From Clostridia bacterium (lineage in GTDB: Bacteria; Bacillota; Clostridia; UMGS1883), in NCBI GenBank assembly GCA_045594665.1, contig JAZNYX010000025.1, forward strand, positions 698 to 64,697: a DNA stretch of 64,000 nucleotides. Reading direction: 5' to 3'. The position numbers and the translations under genes were made by a program. Numbering within the stretch: position 1 is the first letter of the stretch; each line of letters begins with the position of its first letter. Under the pieces are notes generated by a model, which had not been told where the DNA came from, did not search any database, and saw only the letters and a program-made list of their open reading frames with translations. Shown one piece after another: positions 1,059 through 64,000 of the stretch.

Positions 1059-1315
1059 TGCTAAGCCTCCTAAAAAAGTATTTTCGCTGACTCATGCGAC
1101 GGACTGTACACGGCGCCGGGCGTTTCGCCTTTTGCCATATTAAAACCCAGAGCTCGACTCCGGGTACTACATGAATGTGGGCGCAGATGCGCAAAGCTTT
1201 ATCATGTTGTACAGTGACTGCCGCCCGGTTTCACGAACCGGACATTCTCCACGGAAAAACCTACCCATATGGTAGCAACCTCCCGCTTCATCGTCTGTCA
1301 TGTCACAGCCTTGCC

Positions 1316-7988: not shown

Positions 7989-9052
7989 TATTCTTTACCT
8001 CCGTTTGCTTCATAAATCTTGTTAAGAACATCTTCTGTTGTGGTAATCATACCGCCTGTACGGTTGCAAAGAAGAACTTCCTTTTTGCAACGGATAGCAA
8101 GCTCGATATCCTCAATCATCTGTCCCATGGAAAGCTCTACGCTGATAAACTTGTTAACCTTATCGGCAGCCTCATTAAGAACCTTCTTGGGGAAAGGCCA
8201 AAGTGTAATAGGTCTTATCATACCAACCTTGATACCCTCTGCTCTTGCCTGATCAATAGCATTTTTCGCTACACGGGATGCAACGCCGTATGCTACGACA
8301 CAAATCTCGGCATCGTCCATAAGATATTCTTCGTACATTGCTTCCTCTTCTTCAATTTTCTTATAACGCTCGTAGCGCTCGAAGTTAAGCTTTTCAAGCT
8401 CGTCGGGCTGAATGAAGAGAGAGTTTACGATGTTGGGCTTTCTCTCACCTTTGGTTCCTGTAAGAGCCCATGACTTGTCGTACTCATTAATTACACCCTT
8501 TTCAAGGCTAACGGGTTCCATCATCTGACCCATGGTACCGTCGGAGAGAATCATTGCAGGCATTCTGTACTTTTCTGCAAGGTCAAAGCCCTTGAACACC
8601 ATATCAACCATTTCCTGAACGCTGTTGGGAGCAAGTACAAGCAGATGGAAGTCACCGTGACCGCCGCCCTTTGTAGCCTGGAAGTAGTCTGCCTGCGAGG
8701 GCTGGATACCGCCCAGTCCGGGGCCGCCACGCTGTACGTTAATAATAAGTGCAGGAAGGTCACAGCCTGCAAGATAGCTGATACCTTCGCTCTTAAGGCT
8801 GATTCCGGGGCTGGAGGAAGAAGTCATAACCCTCTTACCTGTGGAAGCAACACCGATAACCATATTAATTGCCGCGATTTCACTTTCAGCCTGAAGGAAA
8901 ACGCCGCCCTCTGTCTTGGGCATTTTCTTTGCCATATATGCCGCAACTTCTGTCTGCGGAGTAATAGGATAACCAAAGTAATGCTTACAGCCTGCCATTA
9001 TAGCGGCTTCTGCCAAAGCTTCGTTACCTTTCATCAAAACTTTTTCAGACAT
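7988..9052 (-). CDS. 2-oxoacid:ferredoxin oxidoreductase, alpha subunit
   Basis: 354 aa; LMKGNEALAEAAIMAGCKHYFGYPITPQTE. Confidence 0.9.
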   Translation of the reverse strand: MSEKVLMKGNEALAEAAIMAGCKHYFGYPITPQTEVAAYMAKKMPKTEGGVFLQAESEIAAINMVIGVASTGKRVMTSSSSPGISLKSEGISYLAGCDLPALIINVQRGGPGLGGIQPSQADYFQATKGGGHGDFHLLVLAPNSVQEMVDMVFKGFDLAEKYRMPAMILSDGTMGQMMEPVSLEKGVINEYDKSWALTGTKGERKPNIVNSLFIQPDELEKLNFERYERYKKIEEEEAMYEEYLMDDAEICVVAYGVASRVAKNAIDQARAEGIKVGMIRPITLWPFPKKVLNEAADKVNKFISVELSMGQMIEDIELAIRCKKEVLLCNRTGGMITTTEDVLNKIYEANGGKE

Positions 9053-55150: not shown

Positions 55151-56098
55151 TTAGAAAATTACAATTTCAAGAGTGGGCATCTGAGGAGGAATGCTCATTG
55201 TAGCCATACCGTTTGTACGAGCCTTGAGAGCTGTGCCGACAGCAATATCCTCCAGTGTCCTTTCGTTACCGTCAGCATGTTTTATAACAGTTTCGGCTGC
55301 TACATTAAGCGCAACCTCGTTTTCACCTATGATAAGCTGTGCTACGTTACCCTCTTCATCATTGATGATTTCAGTTACTGTACCTTCCTTAACGATCTGC
55401 GCAATTTCGTCTGTAACAGCAATTTTTACTGCATTTGTCTGCGCAGGGATAGATGCTGTCATTGCTTCATCGTAGATAACATTAAGTTGCATAGCGGAAT
55501 CTATGGCAGAAAGCGCAATTGTTTTACCCTCTGCATCAAGGATTTCTGTTTCCTCTGTTACATTAAGGATAACCTCCCCAAGAACAAAGTCCACTACTGT
55601 AAGAGTGTTTTCGCTAATTTCCGTAGCATAAACGCTTGCTGTAGGGTTCTGCTGAGCTACTTCTTCATTCTCCGAAGTCTCATCAGGAACAAGAATCGCG
55701 TAAGGATTTTCCCACGGATAAAGTCTTCCGCCGAGAATTTCGGGGATAAAGCTTTCAGGAACGTAAGTCGTTCCGTCTATAAGCATAGGAGCTTTACCAA
55801 GAGGCTGATGTGCCATTCTGGAAAATGCATATCCGTCAAAGTCGGGAGAGCAGGTAATAAATATTGCGCCCTTGATAAGTTCAATTGTTCTTGTTTCTTC
55901 AATCCATTTTACTTCAAAGCCGAGTTCTTCGCATACTGCGCGAAGAGGAATCATTACTGTGCCGTCTTCCGCTTTTATGTACTGAGCTTCAATTTTGTTG
56001 TTGTTGACCACAAGTTCATTCTTTTCTTCCTGTGCAAATACACTTAATGCCGAAAGCATCATTATACCTGCAAGCATAATCCCTAAAATTCTCTTCAT
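55151..56098 (-). CDS. secreted protein with copper-amine-oxidase N-terminal-like (stalk) domain
   Basis: start set at MKRILGIML (AAGAGG RBS); ...MIPLRAVCEELGFEVKWIEETRTIEL... Confidence 0.7.
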   Translation of the reverse strand: MKRILGIMLAGIMMLSALSVFAQEEKNELVVNNNKIEAQYIKAEDGTVMIPLRAVCEELGFEVKWIEETRTIELIKGAIFITCSPDFDGYAFSRMAHQPLGKAPMLIDGTTYVPESFIPEILGGRLYPWENPYAILVPDETSENEEVAQQNPTASVYATEISENTLTVVDFVLGEVILNVTEETEILDAEGKTIALSAIDSAMQLNVIYDEAMTASIPAQTNAVKIAVTDEIAQIVKEGTVTEIINDEEGNVAQLIIGENEVALNVAAETVIKHADGNERTLEDIAVGTALKARTNGMATMSIPPQMPTLEIVIF

Positions 56099-56225
56099 TT
56101 TAAACCTCTTTCCACTGTCTTTTGACAGCACTTTTATTTTTCATCAGTTATACGCCACAATTAATGGAAAGGTTCAGAACTTTTTGAAAAATTTTCCGAA
56201 CATTTCTACTTATTCTGAATTTTTT

Positions 56226-56585
56226 CTATTCAAACAATTTTCCTAATGCTTTTTTCTCGATTCTGGAAACATAACTGCGGCTGATACCAAGGATTTTTGC
56301 AACCTCTCTTTGGGGCAGCGGCTCCATGCCGCAAAGCCCGTACCGAAGGCGTATAATCTGCTGTTCACGCTCCGCAAGTGAGCTTCTGATTTTTTTATAA
56401 AGCCGTGAGATTAAATTATCACGGTCGATTTTTTCGCAAATATCCTCATTTTCACTTTGAAGTACATCCATAAGGGAAACCTCGTTTCCGTCACCGTCAA
56501 AGCCTATAGGTTCATTAAGCGAAACCTGGTTTGCAAATTTTTTATCGTGACGGATAGACATAAGGATTTCGTTCGCTATCCCCTC
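56226..56585 (-). CDS. sigK: 3' segment of sporulation sigma factor SigK (regions 3-4; spoIIIC-like); 5' half not in window
   Basis: IANEILMSIRHDKK...PIGFDGDGNEVSLMDVLQSENEDI...QREVAKILGISRSYVSRIEKKALGKLFE; homology to sigma factors stops at ~56580. Confidence 0.8.
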   Translation of the reverse strand, partial: EGIANEILMSIRHDKKFANQVSLNEPIGFDGDGNEVSLMDVLQSENEDICEKIDRDNLISRLYKKIRSSLAEREQQIIRLRYGLCGMEPLPQREVAKILGISRSYVSRIEKKALGKLFE

Positions 56586-58359: not shown

Positions 58360-58403
58360 AAAAAAGACTGATATAGAGAGCAAATTCGCATCTATACCAG
58401 TCT
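58360..58403 (-). terminator. intrinsic terminator ending the cohesin operon
   Basis: minus strand: agactggtataga...tctatatcagtct followed by TTTTTT. Confidence 0.7.
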
Positions 58404-58431
58404 TTATTTGGGAGTTGTCAAGATTTATTAT

Positions 58432-58608
58432 TTATCTTTGTTTTCTTCTTATCCGTCTTTTAAGCTCTTCCAACCGTATAATAACTTCTTCTTTTTGTGG
58501 CTCTTCCCTCATTAGGTCTACGAGCTTATCAATATACATTACCATTTTATTATCTCTGTCTACATTTCTTTCTTGTATATCTAATACATCTTCAAATATT
58601 CTTATCAA
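58432..58608 (-). CDS. small charged helical hypothetical protein (~58 aa)
   Basis: TTG 58608 preceded by GGAGGTG; ...DKLVDLMREEPQKEEVIIRLEELKRRIRRKQR; start uncertain. Confidence 0.3.
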   Translation of the reverse strand: MIRIFEDVLDIQERNVDRDNKMVMYIDKLVDLMREEPQKEEVIIRLEELKRRIRRKQR

Positions 58609-58667
58609 TATTTTCACCTCCCGAACTCCCAACAATTCAGGTGGTGACTTTCTTCTTTTTAGAATAA

Positions 58668-59450
58668 TTATATGTCTATTTTTACTGCATCTGTAAATGG
58701 AACTAATGTACTCATATTCCACCACATTACTTTAATATATTTTCCGTCAGCAGAATCAAGAGTTACATTGACTGTTGATTTAGCAGGGTATAGCTTTACT
58801 GTTTCCATAGAGCCATCATTTTTATATAGTACAGCAATTATTGTTCCTGTTAATTCATTAGTTGATGATACATAAACATCAAACTTAATATCATTTGTTG
58901 TCTTTGTATATGTACCTACAGAAATTGTAGGTTTTGTAACATCAGGCTCTTCCTCACCACCTGATGATGTAACTTCTATACTTCCATTTACAATAGCTAT
59001 ATCTATATCATTCATATCATTGTCATATATTTCTCCTGCGTTATAGGAAAGATTTATATTAAATTTACCTGTCGTATTTGCAGGAGCTAAAAACTTTAGA
59101 ATAATAATTGTACCATTTGAGGTATCTGCATCTAATCCGTCAAGCAGTATAGTACACGGATTGGCAGAAAAATCCTTTATAGGAGTAAGGTCTAATGTAG
59201 ATAATGCTTCTCCCTGTTCTATACTTGTGAATGTAAGTCTGCTATCATAGGATAATGAGAGTTGCATTGCTAACACCCCTGTGGTATTTCCCGATAAGAC
59301 TATGGGGACTGCAACCTCTTCACCTGCTTCCGCTGTTACATTTGATACAGTTAATGTAGCTTTTGATGAAGCTGAAACAGGTGATATATTCATTATTATT
59401 AAAAGTAATGTAACACACAACGCTATTAATCTTTTAATATTTATTTTCAT
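58668..59450 (-). CDS. secreted cohesin-domain protein with C-terminal beta-sandwich-like domain
   Basis: signal peptide MKINIKRLIALCVTLLLIIMNISPVSA; cohesin pattern LTVSNVTAEAGEEVAVPIVLSGN..GVLAMQLSLSYD...GEIYDNDMNDIDIAIVNGSIEV. Confidence 0.75.
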   Translation of the reverse strand: MKINIKRLIALCVTLLLIIMNISPVSASSKATLTVSNVTAEAGEEVAVPIVLSGNTTGVLAMQLSLSYDSRLTFTSIEQGEALSTLDLTPIKDFSANPCTILLDGLDADTSNGTIIILKFLAPANTTGKFNINLSYNAGEIYDNDMNDIDIAIVNGSIEVTSSGGEEEPDVTKPTISVGTYTKTTNDIKFDVYVSSTNELTGTIIAVLYKNDGSMETVKLYPAKSTVNVTLDSADGKYIKVMWWNMSTLVPFTDAVKIDI

Positions 59451-59467
59451 CTTATGCCATCTCCTCA

Positions 59468-61921
59468 TTACTTGCCAAGTGTTACGCCATAGCCACCAAT
59501 AACATATCTACGCAGTATCGTTATATCTTTTATATTTGTAATTCCGTCACAATTAACATCTGCTGCTTCATTTAAGGTTACACCATATCCACCAACTACA
59601 CCTCTGCGAAGTAATGTAATATCTTTAATATTAATTATGCCATCATCGTTGATATCTCCTATTGTATAACTTTTAACAGTAACACTACCATCAACGATTT
59701 CAATGTCAATATCATTCATATCATTGTCATAAACTTCACCTTTTGTATAGGAAGCAGAAATATCGTAAACAGTACCATCTTCTGCATCTTCGGGAATTAT
59801 AAATGTCATATTGAGAATTTTACCATTTGTACTATCTGCATCAAGACCTTCCCACGCCATATTTAGAGGAATTAAAGCCAAATCTCCCGAAACAGTAAAG
59901 TCAAGAGTTTCTAATGCACTATCTTCCTCTCCTGTGCTTTGCACAACTGACGAGAGCGCTAGTCTTTCATCATATGTGAGTTTTAACATCATACCTAAAA
60001 TTCCTGGGTTGTTTTCAATATTTAAAGCTACTGTAACTGTTTCACCTGCTTTGCCTGTAACTGATTCTATTCTTAATGTAGGTGTATCCTCAGCATCAGG
60101 TTCAGTAGGTTCACTTGGCTCTGTAGGTTCACTTGTTTCAGTTACTACAACTGAACACAATGCATTATAGTTTCCATCTTCTGTTGTAACAGTAATTGTA
60201 GCATTACCTGCACCAACAGCCGTTACAGTTCCTGAAACAACAGTTGCAACTGATGTATCAGACGATGCCCATGATACATTTTTATTTGTTGCATTATCGG
60301 GAGTTATATTCACTTCTAAAGTCGCTGTTTCTCCAATTTCCAAAGTAATTTCATCTTCAGACATAGTAATTGCTGACACGCTTACAATTTCTTCAGGGAC
60401 TTCTACTTCAGACTCCCAAAGCAAATATGGATACCCGTCATTTCTTTCGCTACAAATTCCCCATACTGTTCCAAAGTCCCAACCTTCATACATTGTTTGC
60501 ATCTTCATTGCAGAACTTAAAAGAGGTGTTCCACAATTTGTATCATCTTCAAAAGGATTGTCAGACAGATAATAACTATTCTCTATTGTTCCGTCACCAC
60601 ACCCAATTTTAATTCTCGAAAATTCAACATCATCATATACCGTTCCTATATTCAAAGAAGTAGCTTGTTTATATGTACCGTTTATGAGAATATCTCCACC
60701 CGTGTAATAGCAGTTCTTTATATGACTGTTTCCAGCAATACCAAAAGCATCCTCCTCCATATTAACATACGTGCTACCCTCACGAGAAGTTGCCTTTATA
60801 TACATATTTGAATAACAGTTTTCAACCTCTCCACACTGAGCTACTATACCACCCACATATAAGTACGGGTATAATGTCATAGTATTAGTATTGCAAGACA
60901 CTACAAATGTTGCATTTATTTCCCCTTTTGTATAAGAGGTCTTTACTGTTCCCGAATTATATCCAGCTATTCCTCCAACATAGCTGTTATACGCACCATC
61001 TTTAATTTCACTGCTGGTGGATAAGCTACAACTGATTTTTCCATTATAATAACTTCTGGATATTGTTCCGCTGTTATCACTTGCAAGACCACCAACCTTA
61101 AAATTTAAACGTTTTTGAGTGGTTCGCGGTTGTCTATCATAATGTAAAATATTCAAATCTGAATAAGACAAATCTATTGTTCCTGAGTTTGAAATTACAA
61201 AGGCTGTGCTTGCATCTAATAATTCATCACCTGTAGTATAACAGCTCTTTATTGTACCTTTATTAGAAGATACTAAATATGAATTTACAGAAAATGAATT
61301 TGTAATTACTCCACTGTTTTCATTTGCGAGAATATCTCCAACAGTTGAGCACATTTCTATTAGTCCGGAGTTAGTATCTGCTATATGTAAACAATCAGTA
61401 CACTTTGAGATTATTCCTTCGCTATTATTATCTGTTACTATATATCCTGAGGTTGATACACAAGCTCTAATTGTTCCGTTGTTATACTTAACTATAGCAC
61501 CTGTATATTTAGATTCACAATTACTTACTACACCATTATTCGTTGTAACAAGTTCCGCATTTGAAATACTACTATTTTCTATTTTTCCACTTGCATTATT
61601 AGTAATAGCAATCTTACCACCACTTATTGACAAATTCATAATATTTCCCGAATTATTTAAGAAAACATACTCTTTTGTTGTTGTTATTTTAAAACTATTT
61701 CCATCTAAGACACCATTAAAACTTTCTAATGTCGTATCTACAGATATATCTGACATAAGCTTAAAATGTTGTGATGGGAAATACCCTATCATTAAAAAAT
61801 CATCTGTATTTTCAATCAGATACGGACTTATCTCCGTTCCCTCTCCTGTCATAGCACTTACTGATATTGCTCCTACTAACAGCACTATGATTGTTGAAAT
61901 AACCACAACAAGTTTTTTCAT
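59468..61921 (-). CDS. secreted multidomain surface protein: GLUG-motif beta-helix + Big_2 + cohesin + C-terminal dockerin
   Basis: 817 aa; GLUG repeats (YVGGIAGYNSGTVKTSY, KVGGLASDNSGTISRSY); Big_2 (VSWASSDTSVATVVSGTVTAVGAGNATITV); cohesin; dockerin GDINDDGIINIKDITLL...DVNCDGITNIKDITIL. Confidence 0.8.
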   Translation of the reverse strand: MKKLVVVISTIIVLLVGAISVSAMTGEGTEISPYLIENTDDFLMIGYFPSQHFKLMSDISVDTTLESFNGVLDGNSFKITTTKEYVFLNNSGNIMNLSISGGKIAITNNASGKIENSSISNAELVTTNNGVVSNCESKYTGAIVKYNNGTIRACVSTSGYIVTDNNSEGIISKCTDCLHIADTNSGLIEMCSTVGDILANENSGVITNSFSVNSYLVSSNKGTIKSCYTTGDELLDASTAFVISNSGTIDLSYSDLNILHYDRQPRTTQKRLNFKVGGLASDNSGTISRSYYNGKISCSLSTSSEIKDGAYNSYVGGIAGYNSGTVKTSYTKGEINATFVVSCNTNTMTLYPYLYVGGIVAQCGEVENCYSNMYIKATSREGSTYVNMEEDAFGIAGNSHIKNCYYTGGDILINGTYKQATSLNIGTVYDDVEFSRIKIGCGDGTIENSYYLSDNPFEDDTNCGTPLLSSAMKMQTMYEGWDFGTVWGICSERNDGYPYLLWESEVEVPEEIVSVSAITMSEDEITLEIGETATLEVNITPDNATNKNVSWASSDTSVATVVSGTVTAVGAGNATITVTTEDGNYNALCSVVVTETSEPTEPSEPTEPDAEDTPTLRIESVTGKAGETVTVALNIENNPGILGMMLKLTYDERLALSSVVQSTGEEDSALETLDFTVSGDLALIPLNMAWEGLDADSTNGKILNMTFIIPEDAEDGTVYDISASYTKGEVYDNDMNDIDIEIVDGSVTVKSYTIGDINDDGIINIKDITLLRRGVVGGYGVTLNEAADVNCDGITNIKDITILRRYVIGGYGVTLGK

Positions 61922-62087
61922 CTTTCAATTACAACCCTTTCTAACAGTCGATTTTAAAGATACATCAACCTTAAATTTTTTCATATTATATCACACGCTT
62001 TTTCTTTTGTCAATATACGCATCTTTTAATGTTGTGTATACTTACAGAATTATAATGTAAAATTATATTTAGAAAGGGCGGATATTA

Positions 62088-62375: not shown

Positions 62376-62494
62376 TTTCTCTTTTAAGCCTTTAAACTTC
62401 TTCACCCGCAACCGTTCCCACCAAAATATTTTAAACCTGTTTATGAGCCGTTAAGAGTTTCTTAACAACAAAATAACTGAAAAGAAACAAAACG

Positions 62495-62536
62495 AAAAAT
62501 CACATTGTCACTAATTAAAGTGGTAATGTGATTTTT
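62495..62536. terminator. bidirectional terminator between the two XRE genes
   Basis: aaaaatcacatt...aatgtgattttt. Confidence 0.6.
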
Positions 62537-62563
62537 GCATTTACTTTATTATTATAGATACCC

Positions 62564-62995
62564 TTAAAAATGTTTTATCACTTGATTCATTACATCAAAT
62601 ACACAGTCAAACAACTTTTGCTTATGTGATAACAAATTAAGTATCTTAATAAATCTATGGTTGCTACGATTTAAAGTTATTAGCCAATGGATTGTTTCTA
62701 TACTTAATCCAGTTCTATTATCACAATAGACTTCATTAATTCTAACATTGAAAAATAATGCTAATACAGAAACTTGCAACACCTCACAAATTCTCAGCAT
62801 TTCACCTGAAGTAGGTTCTACTTGATTATTTTCAATTTTACTTATCCTCCGTACATTCATAAATAAATTTTCTGCAAATTTTTCTTGTGTCATATTTTGA
62901 CTTTCACGCAACATCTTAATGTTTTCTCCTACCGTTTTTTGTACGTTGATTTTACAATCATATTTTTCCTGTACAATTTTAATTTTCTCCGACAT
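62564..62995 (-). CDS. XRE-family HTH regulator with C-terminal extension
   Basis: 143 aa; IKMLRESQNMTQEKFAENLFMNVRRISKIENN. Confidence 0.8.
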   Translation of the reverse strand: MSEKIKIVQEKYDCKINVQKTVGENIKMLRESQNMTQEKFAENLFMNVRRISKIENNQVEPTSGEMLRICEVLQVSVLALFFNVRINEVYCDNRTGLSIETIHWLITLNRSNHRFIKILNLLSHKQKLFDCVFDVMNQVIKHF

Positions 62996-63240
62996 CTAAA
63001 TACCTCCTTTATAATTCGCCTCTAAACATAGGGGCATCTTATATAACGGAGTTGAGCCTAAAAAACATCTTAATTATCACAAAAATGTTGGAAATTTTTT
63101 ATCCTACACACAAAGCGACATATTATATTTACATGTGTTTGGATTGATGTCACAATATAAACACAGCTTTTGCAAAACGCTATGTTTAATTTATTAATTT
63201 ATTACTTTACGCTTCAATAGCGGTTAAGGAGGTAACAAAT

Positions 63241-64000
63241 ATGAAGAAAATAACCACTTCCAGTATAGTCAACATTGATGATAGCAAAATCAGTACTGTT
63301 TATAAGACAGGTAATATAACTGAGATTATTACGCCTCATCATAGGAACGAGTGTTTAAAGAAAATTCGTAAACTTAGCAAAACTCAATATGTAGACTTGG
63401 GCACTGGTGAAATTAAGGAATATAAGCAAAGCACAGACAAAAGCGACAACGTACACAACGTTCAACGTTCTTTAGCTAATCTAAGGCGTATCATTAACCT
63501 AAATTTTACTGGCGAAGATTCCGAAAGATTTTTGACTTTAACTTATTCAACCTTGATGACAGACACAAACAAGCTCTACCGTGATTTTAAAAACTTTATT
63601 AGCAAGCTAAGAAAACTTTATCCCGTTGAATATGTTGTCGTGGCCGAACCACAACAATCTGGCAGCTGGCATTTGCACGTGTTATTAAAATCTATGGCAA
63701 TTAAAAGGTTGCATATCCCTATTGAAGTTTTGAGCGAGTTATGGAATCACGGTTATTTCCACATTGAAAAGGTACCATTCGCTGATAATTTTGGAGCTTA
63801 TTTTGCGGTTAGAGTTACTGACCTTTATTCAGAAGACTCTGATATCAATAATATTAATGCTCCAAAATCAGTAGTTAAAGGCGGAAGATTACATTTCTAT
63901 CCTCCAAATTTTAAAATATATCGATGCTCTAAATGCATAAAAAGACCTCAACCTATACAACTGACGTATGGAGAGGCAAAGAAATTAACAGATGGTATGA
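63241..64000 (+). CDS. HUH-type rolling-circle replication initiator (Rep), 3' end outside the window
   Basis: own translation; AAGGAGG RBS; motif 1 FLTLTY, motif 2 SWHLHVLL (HUH); open frame to the window edge, absent from the ORF track because it has no stop. Confidence 0.7.
   Translation, partial: MKKITTSSIVNIDDSKISTVYKTGNITEIITPHHRNECLKKIRKLSKTQYVDLGTGEIKEYKQSTDKSDNVHNVQRSLANLRRIINLNFTGEDSERFLTLTYSTLMTDTNKLYRDFKNFISKLRKLYPVEYVVVAEPQQSGSWHLHVLLKSMAIKRLHIPIEVLSELWNHGYFHIEKVPFADNFGAYFAVRVTDLYSEDSDINNINAPKSVVKGGRLHFYPPNFKIYRCSKCIKRPQPIQLTYGEAKKLTDGM

Follow-up and report, generated by a model that had tools for sequence, protein, structure and literature searches.

In a 64,000-nucleotide stretch of DNA from a Clostridia bacterium (GTDB lineage UMGS1883; assembly GCA_045594665.1, contig JAZNYX010000025.1), hereafter called the window, an integrative element that interrupts the sporulation gene sigK carries a cassette of two genes for secreted proteins built from cohesin and dockerin modules. 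The larger protein combines a variable head with a Big_2 stalk, a cohesin and a C-terminal dockerin, and the smaller one consists of a second cohesin followed by a C-terminal domain (CTD), which in related loci is fused to the same kind of head and stalk in a single chain. We regard the domains of the two proteins, the genetic context of the cassette and its mobility as established with high confidence. That the two proteins are assembled through their own cohesin-dockerin pair and are anchored by the CTD, in which case the cassette would represent a self-contained mobile surface adhesin, is the explanation that we consider probable, albeit by no means certain.

Results

Two adjacent genes encode secreted cohesin and dockerin proteins

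According to the list of open reading frames (ORFs), the large gene (59468..61921, minus strand) encodes 817 amino acids (aa) and the small gene (58668..59468, minus strand) 266 aa, or 260 aa if the small protein is counted from the methionine used by its orthologue in the related locus L001, with a probable start at 59450. Both proteins possess an N-terminal hydrophobic signal sequence ending in VSA, which agrees with a previous sequence-only reading of this DNA that had described two adjacent minus-strand genes for secreted proteins. In the large protein, the signal peptide is followed by a solenoid head, a Big_2 domain, cohesin 1 and the dockerin at the C-terminus, and in the small protein by cohesin 2, which is a paralogue of cohesin 1, and the CTD (Table 1).

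Pfam calls were judged against the curated cutoffs of 22.8 bits for Big_2, 24.1 bits for Cohesin, 22.9 bits for Dockerin_1 and 20.5 bits for GLUG. The 817-aa protein matched Big_2 (PF02368; residues 515-589, 53.3 bits), Cohesin (PF00963; residues 615-749, 42.4 bits) and Dockerin_1 (PF00404; residues 755-807, 32 bits), and the 266-aa protein matched Cohesin (PF00963; residues 38-166, 46.9 bits). Profile searches had been named beforehand as a possible refutation of the cohesin and dockerin assignments; they upheld both, together with the Big_2 call, and the module coordinates proposed initially agree with ours within about 25 nt. The AlphaFold2 models of the two proteins reached mean predicted local distance difference test (pLDDT) values of 84 and 79, with about 90 across the cohesin regions. 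In Foldseek comparisons, cohesin 1 showed target TM-scores of 0.76-0.83 to the type I cohesins 3ul4, 5nrk and 6kge, and cohesin 2 of about 0.8 to the solved cohesins 2xdh, 3ul4 and 5n5p, so that both models display the nine-stranded beta-sandwich (jelly-roll) fold of cohesins (target TM-score range 0.74-0.83).

The dockerin is composed of two near-identical segments of 22 residues, DINDDGIINIKDITLLRRGVVG and DVNCDGITNIKDITILRRYVIG, whose calcium loops (DINDDGIINIKD and DVNCDGITNIKD) follow the pattern D-x-N-x-D-G-x-x-N-x-x-D and are each succeeded by a helix, located at residues 765-775 and 797-807 in the AlphaFold2 model. These two loops are the sole matches to the pattern in a six-frame translation of the whole window. 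Moreover, the repeats are identical at positions 10, 11, 17 and 18 (I-K and R-R), the putative recognition positions, and in solved systems symmetric recognition residues of this kind accompany a dual binding mode.

The head (residues ~24-505) is built from successive short strands in the AlphaFold2 model, as is usual for solenoids, and contains nine repeats of the pattern [NS]G.[IV]..[CS], which was derived from the sequence of the head itself. The Pfam GLUG profile (PF07581) remained below its threshold with 14.4 bits (E = 0.052), but the L012 orthologue scored 121 bits and PF07581 is present in many homologues, which is why we call the head GLUG-like and not a GLUG member. Accordingly, the beta-helix proposed in the sequence-only reading is retained as a solenoid in the model, and its assignment to the GLUG family is not. 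A comparison of the head with PDB sequences gave no match, and the whole-chain Foldseek search with the model of the 817-aa protein was dominated by the cohesin and yielded no structural neighbour for the head.

Neither of the proteins contains a further transmembrane-like segment, a C-terminal hydrophobic segment or an LPXTG motif, and Pfam revealed no SLH domain in either. Likewise, no glycoside hydrolase or carbohydrate-binding module (CBM) family was matched in Pfam or NCBIfam, the sole NCBIfam match being to the dockerin region of CelK. With regard to the parts of a cellulosome or amylosome, the adjacent genes therefore provide a dockerin-bearing subunit and a cohesin-bearing scaffoldin, and neither an SLH or LPXTG anchor nor cargo in the form of carbohydrate-active enzymes (CAZymes) or CBMs.

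The C-terminal domain is found in split and in fused proteins

The CTD was modelled by AlphaFold2 as a beta-sandwich of seven strands and about 85 aa with pLDDT values above 90, and it is characterised by the motif G..I.ALYD...YIKxMWW...P. It showed no sequence match to an annotated family in Pfam, NCBIfam or the PDB; a weak PDB match to the C-terminal beta-sandwich of pancreatic lipase (E = 2e-4) was taken as uninformative. When 1.84 billion representatives were searched exhaustively with a profile of the CTD, 399 protein clusters matched at E ≤ 1e-3; a word-indexed homologue search with the CTD alignment returned just 2 matches. In 150 of the 165 retrieved proteins the CTD ends at most 10 residues from the C-terminus. 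About half of a sample of 75 proteins are cohesin-CTD proteins of about 250 aa, and in the remaining ones, which are large, the CTD is combined with modules such as LRR_5, LRR_8, Big_2, Flg_new, GLUG and lectin. Such a distribution is as expected for a module for surface retention or sorting, which makes the CTD a candidate anchor.

Single-chain relatives of the cassette link the two proteins directly. In P0001 (676 aa, L103/L104), a head with 72% identity to that of the window is followed by Big_2 and then by the CTD within one chain, and the gene is located between the same divergent helix-turn-helix (HTH) gene and the same small ORF as in the window. Its DNA is colinear with window positions 61859-60143 and then resumes at 58883-58587; the skipped block of roughly 1.26 kb corresponds exactly to cohesin 1, the dockerin, the stop, the second signal peptide and cohesin 2. 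The same fusion of head, Big_2 and CTD is present in P0003/L002 and in L015. Identity of the window head decreases from 72% (P0001) to 53% with P0003 and to 31% with the L001 orthologue. If the dockerin does pair with cohesin 2, this would rebuild the single-chain architecture from two proteins, and we consider these relatives the strongest, albeit indirect, support for the pairing.

Both cohesins vary together with the dockerin of their cassette

Cohesin 1 and cohesin 2 of the window are 43% identical (BLASTP E = 1e-29) and share the motifs GLDAD(S/T)(T/S)NG and GE(I/V)YDNDMNDIDI, as had been noticed for the paralogous modules before. Their genes also share a 23-nt stretch, ATATCATTCATATCATTGTCATA, which occurs at 59005 and 59709 only, i.e. 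in exactly 2 copies compared to 0 expected in shuffles. However, the probability of identical codons across the peptide YDNDMND is roughly 0.03-0.07 given the A+T-biased codon usage. Since the peptide is identical and the codons are A+T-biased, the identity mainly reflects protein conservation, so that the two copies are real but provide weak evidence for anything beyond the conserved peptide. We discarded gene conversion as the source of the 23-nt identity because it is unproven; of the 60 residues shared by the cohesins, 36 use identical codons, compared to 26.8 expected.

A comparison of eight cassettes revealed that the modules co-vary. Cassettes of the window type pair cohesins carrying GE[IV]YDNDMNDI with dockerins carrying INIKDITLLRR..GGYG, and in L012 and L013 these motifs are replaced by YYKG..GNYTDG.DVNYDEN in both cohesins and by VNNKDATALLRYLAGW in the dockerin. 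In each of L003, L012 and L013, the two cohesins of the cassette share 59% identity, whereas orthologues from L012 and L013 share only 42% (cohesin 1) and 54% (cohesin 2). In the window pair, 25 of 46 positions are identical in the strands of the 8-3-6-5 sheet (11 of 13 in strand 8) compared to 16 of 46 in the other sheet, with the strands assigned from predicted secondary structure in canonical cohesin order and not by superposition. Together with the symmetric dockerin, the co-variation and the conserved 8-3-6-5 sheet suggest that both cohesins recognise the dockerin of their own cassette. In that case, anchoring via cohesin 2 and head-to-tail multimerisation via cohesin 1 would be possible. 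The co-variation and the split and fused relatives lend indirect support to the putative binding of a dockerin by these cohesins, an interaction that is Ca2+-dependent in the cohesin family.

The cassette belongs to an element inserted in sigK

The host DNA next to the element encodes the C-terminal half of SigK (sigK-C), which aligns to positions 111-225 (of 235) of the NCBIfam models NF004471 and TIGR02846 with E = 1e-43 and exceeds its score for SigE by about 40 bits. It is directly abutted by the gene for a large serine recombinase, which matches the PHROG 95 integrase family at 397 bits and shows 96% and 85% amino acid identity to the recombinases of L001 and L004, respectively. DNA identity to L001 drops from 90.6% to 76.0% at this junction. 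In L001 (GCA_054295485.1), ATAGAAAA is present at both junctions; the window holds a single junction, for which we take the L001 sequence as the putative crossover core. As the N-terminal half of sigK is absent from the 64-kb window, the element must extend past position 64000. In addition, the G+C content of about 44% in the host DNA (range ~42-45%) falls at 57 kb to about 33% (range ~30-36%) in the DNA that follows.

The complete situation is seen in L001, where both halves of sigK flank an element of ~12 kb that carries the same cassette in the order HTH, D5-type primase, DUF6076, NACHT NTPase, second HTH, cassette, small ORF and recombinase. When the sigK halves of L001 were joined in silico, the product scored 305.9 bits with NF004471, which exceeds the cutoff of 252 and lies about 80 bits above SigE; with TIGR02846 it scored 298.3 bits at a cutoff of 298.65. 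By analogy with skin elements, excision would take place in the mother cell during sporulation and would restore sigK.

Some further details of the element and its surroundings were observed. The ORF of the recombinase crosses the element boundary, as its last ~12 codons (ending in DSERNPYVYPSR and the stop) come from sigK DNA, and the same applies to L001; upon excision, the recombinase of the circular element would therefore acquire another C-terminal tail. At 56572..56580 (minus strand), the sequence of the window is ATAGCGAAC, which translates to I-A-N in frame with sigK, and that of L001 is ATAGAAAAC (I-E-N), which yields C-I-E-N-E-I-L-M in the rejoined SigK of L001; a glutamate in the rejoined sigK of the window would depend on the crossover point and on the far junction beyond the window. 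The primase (D5_N/DUF5906) and the 858-aa NACHT NTPase, a possible anti-phage defence gene, occupy L001 4087..9361 and are not in the element part seen in the window. Between enolase and sigK-C, the window encodes a secreted protein of 326 aa with Cu_amine_oxidN1 (55151..56131, minus strand); L001 has no gene at that spot, its match to the window jumping from sigK-C to enolase. The sole Rfam match in the window is a ribosomal protein S10 leader of the Clostridia type (RF03136, 58.9 bits; 1218..1300, minus strand), which is consistent with a Clostridia host. The host itself is an uncultured Clostridia or Oscillospiraceae-like gut bacterium represented by metagenome assemblies.

The cassette probably forms a separate operon

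The promoter predicted upstream of the cassette by consensus match alone is located 64 nt upstream of the 817-aa ORF and represents the best site in an 8-kb scan. As in the window, the adhesin gene of all related loci (L001, L002, L004 and L103/L104) is preceded by a divergently oriented HTH gene. At the other end, orthologues of the 58-aa ORF with 58-60 aa occur in L001, L004 and L103/L104, always 3' of the adhesin gene or genes, in split and fused forms alike. The 58-aa ORF had no match in Pfam or PHROG and could be a recombination directionality factor or part of the adhesin module. Between the cassette operon and the recombinase gene lies a terminator-like hairpin, which none of 200 shuffles matched in folding energy.

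From the predicted promoter, the divergent regulator, the tight gene spacing and the terminator-like hairpin, we read the cassette as a separate operon that is probably repressor-controlled and vegetatively expressed. Co-transcription of the cassette with the recombinase was rejected because of its own promoter and terminator, and for the same reason the operon does not look like part of a sporulation transcript. Hence, the presumed developmental excision of the element gives no sign of a role of the cassette in sporulation.

Table 1 Features of the sigK element and its cassette in the window (positions are those of the whole stretch).
Feature	Position	Strand	Basis
Signal peptide of 817-aa protein	61853..61921	-	
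Variable GLUG-like beta-solenoid head	60407..61852	-	AlphaFold2 model, nine repeats
Big_2 Ig-like domain	60155..60379	-	Pfam 53 bits
Cohesin 1 (817-aa protein)	59675..60079	-	Pfam 42.4 bits, Foldseek
Dockerin	59471..59659	-	Pfam 32 bits, two Ca loops
Cohesin 2 (small protein)	58971..59357	-	Pfam 46.9 bits, Foldseek
CTD of small protein (residues ~178-266)	58671..58937	-	AlphaFold2 pLDDT above 90
Predicted sigma-70-type promoter, TTGACA-17-TATAAT, extended -10 TG	62013..61985	-	12/12 consensus positions
Divergent Xre-type HTH regulator, 95 aa	62088..62375	+	Pfam HTH_3, PHROG transcriptional regulator or repressor
58-aa ORF, TTG start after GGAGGTG	58432..58608	-	helical, basic C-terminus
Terminator-like hairpin and U-run	58363..58405	-	dG = -21.3 kcal/mol, z = -5.5
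Large serine recombinase, SpoIVCA-like, 569 aa	56542..58251	-	Pfam Resolvase, Recombinase, Zn_ribbon_recom
Element/sigK junction (attR side), GATAGCGAAC	56572..56582	-	identity step vs L001
sigK C-terminal half (host DNA), junction codons I-A-N-E-I-L-M to stop	56226..56579	-	SigK profiles
Second HTH protein, element backbone, 143 aa	62564..62995	-	Pfam HTH_3; 69% identical to L004 orthologue
Rolling-circle-type Rep, 5' part (REP_ORF2-G2P family)	63241..64000	+	tblastn 75% identity over 253 aa to L004 Rep; runs off window end

The cassette is exchangeable cargo of mobile elements

Within the element, DNA identity between the window and L001 amounts to 90.6% for the recombinase gene, 98.0% for cohesin 1 and 99.1% for the gene of the small protein, whereas it is 76.0% for sigK-C and 69-76% for other host genes. 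From this we conclude that the element was shared recently between well-diverged hosts and that the cassette genes, as the sequence-only reading had claimed, belong to a sigK-intervening element and not to the core genome. The cassette adjoins a sigK-type recombinase in three elements, those of the window, L001 and L004. Since in L004 the recombinase is 85% identical but the small protein only 42%, with different host flanks, the association of the cassette with sigK elements is either old or has arisen repeatedly.

The cassette is also present outside sigK. In L003 and L009, it is located in staphylococcal cassette chromosome (SCC)-like elements beside RNase R (rnr)/smpB, which comprise DUF3846, Mor, DUF1643, a DUF927 (Cch-like) protein and two large serine recombinases, and in the distant relative L012 it is chromosomal, between purCBA and trkHA/rpoB. 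Conversely, the sigK element of L023, whose recombinase is 82% identical, carries other cargo and no cassette. Among 80 metagenomic loci with related recombinases, 4 are directly adjacent to sigK, and none of these 4 has cohesins or dockerins upstream; the metagenome scan and a search of IMG/VR viral contigs were likewise negative for the cassette. The varied sites and the absence from L023 indicate that the cassette is accessory, exchangeable cargo and that its link to sigK is not obligate. The sigK element of L024 (8290..12056) extends over only ~3 kb, with a recombinase of 55% identity and two small ORFs between the N-terminal half of sigK (8290-8577) and the C-terminal half (from ~11595), and it looks like a minimal sigK-intervening element.

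Exchange is apparent within the cassette as well. A blastn comparison with L001 showed a sharp breakpoint at ~60301 inside Big_2, with 93-99% DNA identity downstream and ~40% upstream, which points to a head swapped onto a conserved module of stalk, cohesin and dockerin. The backbone of the window element is likewise mosaic, its right end (62406-64000) resembling L004 at 76%, and it is more similar to an integrative mobilisable element than to a prophage.

Two further arrangements of cohesin and dockerin genes were noted. L009 and L010 represent two cassette copies ~23 kb apart on the same contig (JAZQIO010000095.1), one with a first gene of 680 aa in the SCC-like element and the other with a first gene of 2665 aa and an extra cohesin gene upstream. 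A distant set of three cohesin-dockerin genes next to a tyrosine integrase (L005 to L007, e.g. L005 8821..17555) is found on 24 contigs; the set encodes a 393-aa protein with dockerin and cohesin matches (two cohesin-like stretches in tblastn), a 1626-aa dockerin-LRR_5-Flg_new protein and an SLH-cohesin anchor.

Discussion

We propose that the cassette would be transcribed as one operon from its sigma-70-type promoter, probably held down by the divergent Xre-type regulator, and that it would give rise to two Sec-secreted proteins and the 58-aa protein. In this model, the large protein would present the variable GLUG-like head, for which we infer a function in adhesion, on the Big_2 stalk, followed by the cohesin and the symmetric dockerin. 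The dockerin would plug into the cohesin of the small protein, by which the arrangement of head, Big_2 and CTD would be rebuilt non-covalently, and the CTD would keep the complex on the cell surface. Cohesin 1, which has the presumed dockerin-binding strands in common with cohesin 2, could probably bind the dockerin of a second copy, so that heads would be joined into chains or clusters. As accessory cargo, the cassette travels on integrative elements that depend on large serine recombinases, in the present case on one in sigK.

Cohesin-dockerin systems are treated as chromosomal machines for polysaccharide degradation. The sequence-only reading had called such genes an unusual cargo, and indeed neither sigK elements nor other bacterial mobile elements are described as carriers of cohesin-dockerin genes in the literature searched. 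The nearest layout among the systems compared here comes from Ruminococcus bromii, where Amy4 (Sca1) consists of a head, a cohesin and a dockerin and Sca2 of a single cohesin with a sortase signal, and where the Amy4 dockerin binds Sca2 as well as Amy4's own cohesin, resulting in anchoring and multimerisation (PMC4611034). Like this pair, the cassette encodes a large head-cohesin-dockerin protein and a small single-cohesin protein with a C-terminal anchor candidate, and both hosts are gut Clostridia. Unlike Amy4, the head is a GLUG-like solenoid with Big_2 and not a GH13 amylase, with no CAZyme or CBM detected, and unlike the sortase signal of Sca2, an unannotated beta-sandwich stands at the anchor position. 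The window pair is also set apart by its adjacent genes in one operon and by its place as cargo of mobile elements.

Small one-cohesin proteins are otherwise represented by ScaE of R. flavefaciens, OlpA and OlpC of C. thermocellum and cSca5 of Limousia (PMC12997984), and the modelled cohesins of the window resemble type I cohesins including OlpA (3ul4; TM-score ~0.8). Known anchoring scaffoldins tie dockerin-bearing parts to the cell surface, as in the Limousia mucinolysome with its small sortase-anchored cSca5 (PMC12997984). They do so by LPXTG/sortase or SLH, neither of which is present in the window proteins, and their systems assemble many enzymes, whereas the set in the window looks closed and consists of two proteins.

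As an insertion in the coding region of sigK, the element is comparable to skin of B. subtilis and C. difficile and to the sigK phages of C. perfringens and Alicyclobacillus (PMC5025042, PMC3442830, PMC13141910), with which it shares a large serine recombinase at one junction; in L001, the two sigK halves also rejoin in silico to a full SigK frame. Unlike skin elements, its backbone is not prophage-like but provides either a rolling-circle Rep or a D5 primase next to Xre regulators, to which L001 adds a NACHT NTPase, and its relatives in sigK range from ~3 kb (L024) to at least 12 kb. The element gin in gerE of Bacillus cereus (PMC5595907) is reportedly likewise a small non-phage serine-recombinase element that interrupts a sporulation gene, with a different target gene and different cargo.

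Several points weigh against the proposed assembly and anchoring. An anchoring role of the CTD is deduced solely from its position and its partner domains, and the domain has no recognised wall-binding signature; alternatively, it might serve as a spacer, as a sorting signal or as a module for ligand binding. Neither a ligand nor a catalytic site is recognised for the head, whose GLUG score is sub-threshold. Gene conversion between the two cohesins could be an alternative cause of the co-variation, and the assignment of the sheet strands was made without superposition. Furthermore, the far junction of the element lies outside the window, and host dockerins or scaffoldins beyond the 64 kb may use these cohesins.

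This last point leads to an explanation in which the cassette plugs into a host system similar to a cellulosome, amylosome or mucinolysome, with its dockerin on a host scaffoldin and its cohesins recruiting host dockerin enzymes. Many homologues from related Clostridia combine dockerins or cohesins with GLUG, LRR or Big_2, so that host partners are plausible, a distant three-part system includes an SLH-cohesin anchor (L005-L007), and R. bromii cohesins bind several different dockerins (PMC4611034). Nevertheless, we consider this explanation rather unlikely, because the cassette supplies both partners, which co-vary as a set across cassettes, and the relatives with a single fused chain can do without a host partner. 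No further cohesin or dockerin is encoded in the 56 kb of host sequence within the window, which is weak evidence in view of the small part of the genome covered. The display through a host scaffold suggested in the sequence-only reading is consequently not needed, given that the CTD of the small protein is elsewhere fused to the same head and the cohesins co-vary with their own dockerin; its interpretation as surface-display cargo borne by an element, in which display is presumed, holds in substance. The cassette might also act as an aggregation factor, whose adhesin aids cell-cell contact and thereby transfer of the element, similar to the aggregation substances of conjugative plasmids. The backbone with rolling-circle Rep or D5-type primase has no visible transfer machinery, so that the element would have to rely on mobilisation by cell contact, the Xre-type regulator of the operon is encoded by the element, the element was shared recently between hosts that are ~24% apart in flanking DNA, and the head is swapped among otherwise near-identical cassettes. 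On the other hand, there is no evidence on the ligand of the head, no relaxase or oriT was identified, and chromosomal copies exist, which makes such a function improbable as the explanation, although it would be compatible with the proposed self-contained adhesin and does not exclude it.

A role linked to sporulation, in which the genes would have a function in the mother cell, at the surface of the spore or in excision, appears highly improbable. It would fit the location of the cassette directly upstream of, and co-oriented with, the recombinase and sigK-C, and the intervening 58-aa ORF could by analogy be a recombination directionality factor like CD1234, which reportedly has this function in C. 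difficile. However, the promoter matches the sigma-70-type consensus perfectly, the operon is set off from the recombinase gene by a strong terminator, the same cassette is found in non-sigK elements and at a chromosomal site, and the sigK element L023 with its 82%-identical recombinase lacks it. Finally, the proteins could be degenerate tail or receptor-binding proteins of a prophage remnant, since the 817-aa protein matches PHROG tail and Ig-domain families and classical skin elements are defective prophages. These PHROG matches are confined to the Big_2 region (residues ~505-630), and a Foldseek search against viral structures gave generic beta-sandwich matches only. Both proteins possess signal peptides, phage structural genes are missing from the window, L001 and L004, the small protein has no counterpart on any IMG/VR viral contig, and the ORFs are intact and 98-99% conserved with L001, so that we regard this possibility as largely refuted.

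If the self-contained adhesin is carried further, three statements can be combined, which we put forward jointly and only tentatively. The CTD would be an undescribed anchoring or sorting module of uncultured gut Clostridia, present in hundreds of adhesin-like proteins; a block inserted between stalk and anchor would have turned a single-chain adhesin into a modular, self-polymerising fibre; and the elements would spread this fibre between species and swap its heads, possibly aiding element transfer or host colonisation.

The cassette represents a minimal two-gene cohesin-dockerin set without an enzyme and with an exchangeable head, carried on integrative elements. The most valuable leads are the unannotated CTD and the natural pair of split and fused forms. 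If the proposed assembly is true, the split and fused versions of one adhesin constitute a natural experiment on non-covalent joining, and the CTD is a candidate for a new surface-anchoring module in a bacterial group without cultured members. Under the same condition, such a compact and orthogonal cohesin-dockerin pair might also be of use for protein display. Sporulation biology gains a family of non-prophage sigK-intervening elements of ~3 kb to at least 12 kb with modular cargo, and, provided that the model is correct, mobile elements can alter the surfaces of gut Clostridia by the assembly principle of the cellulosome.

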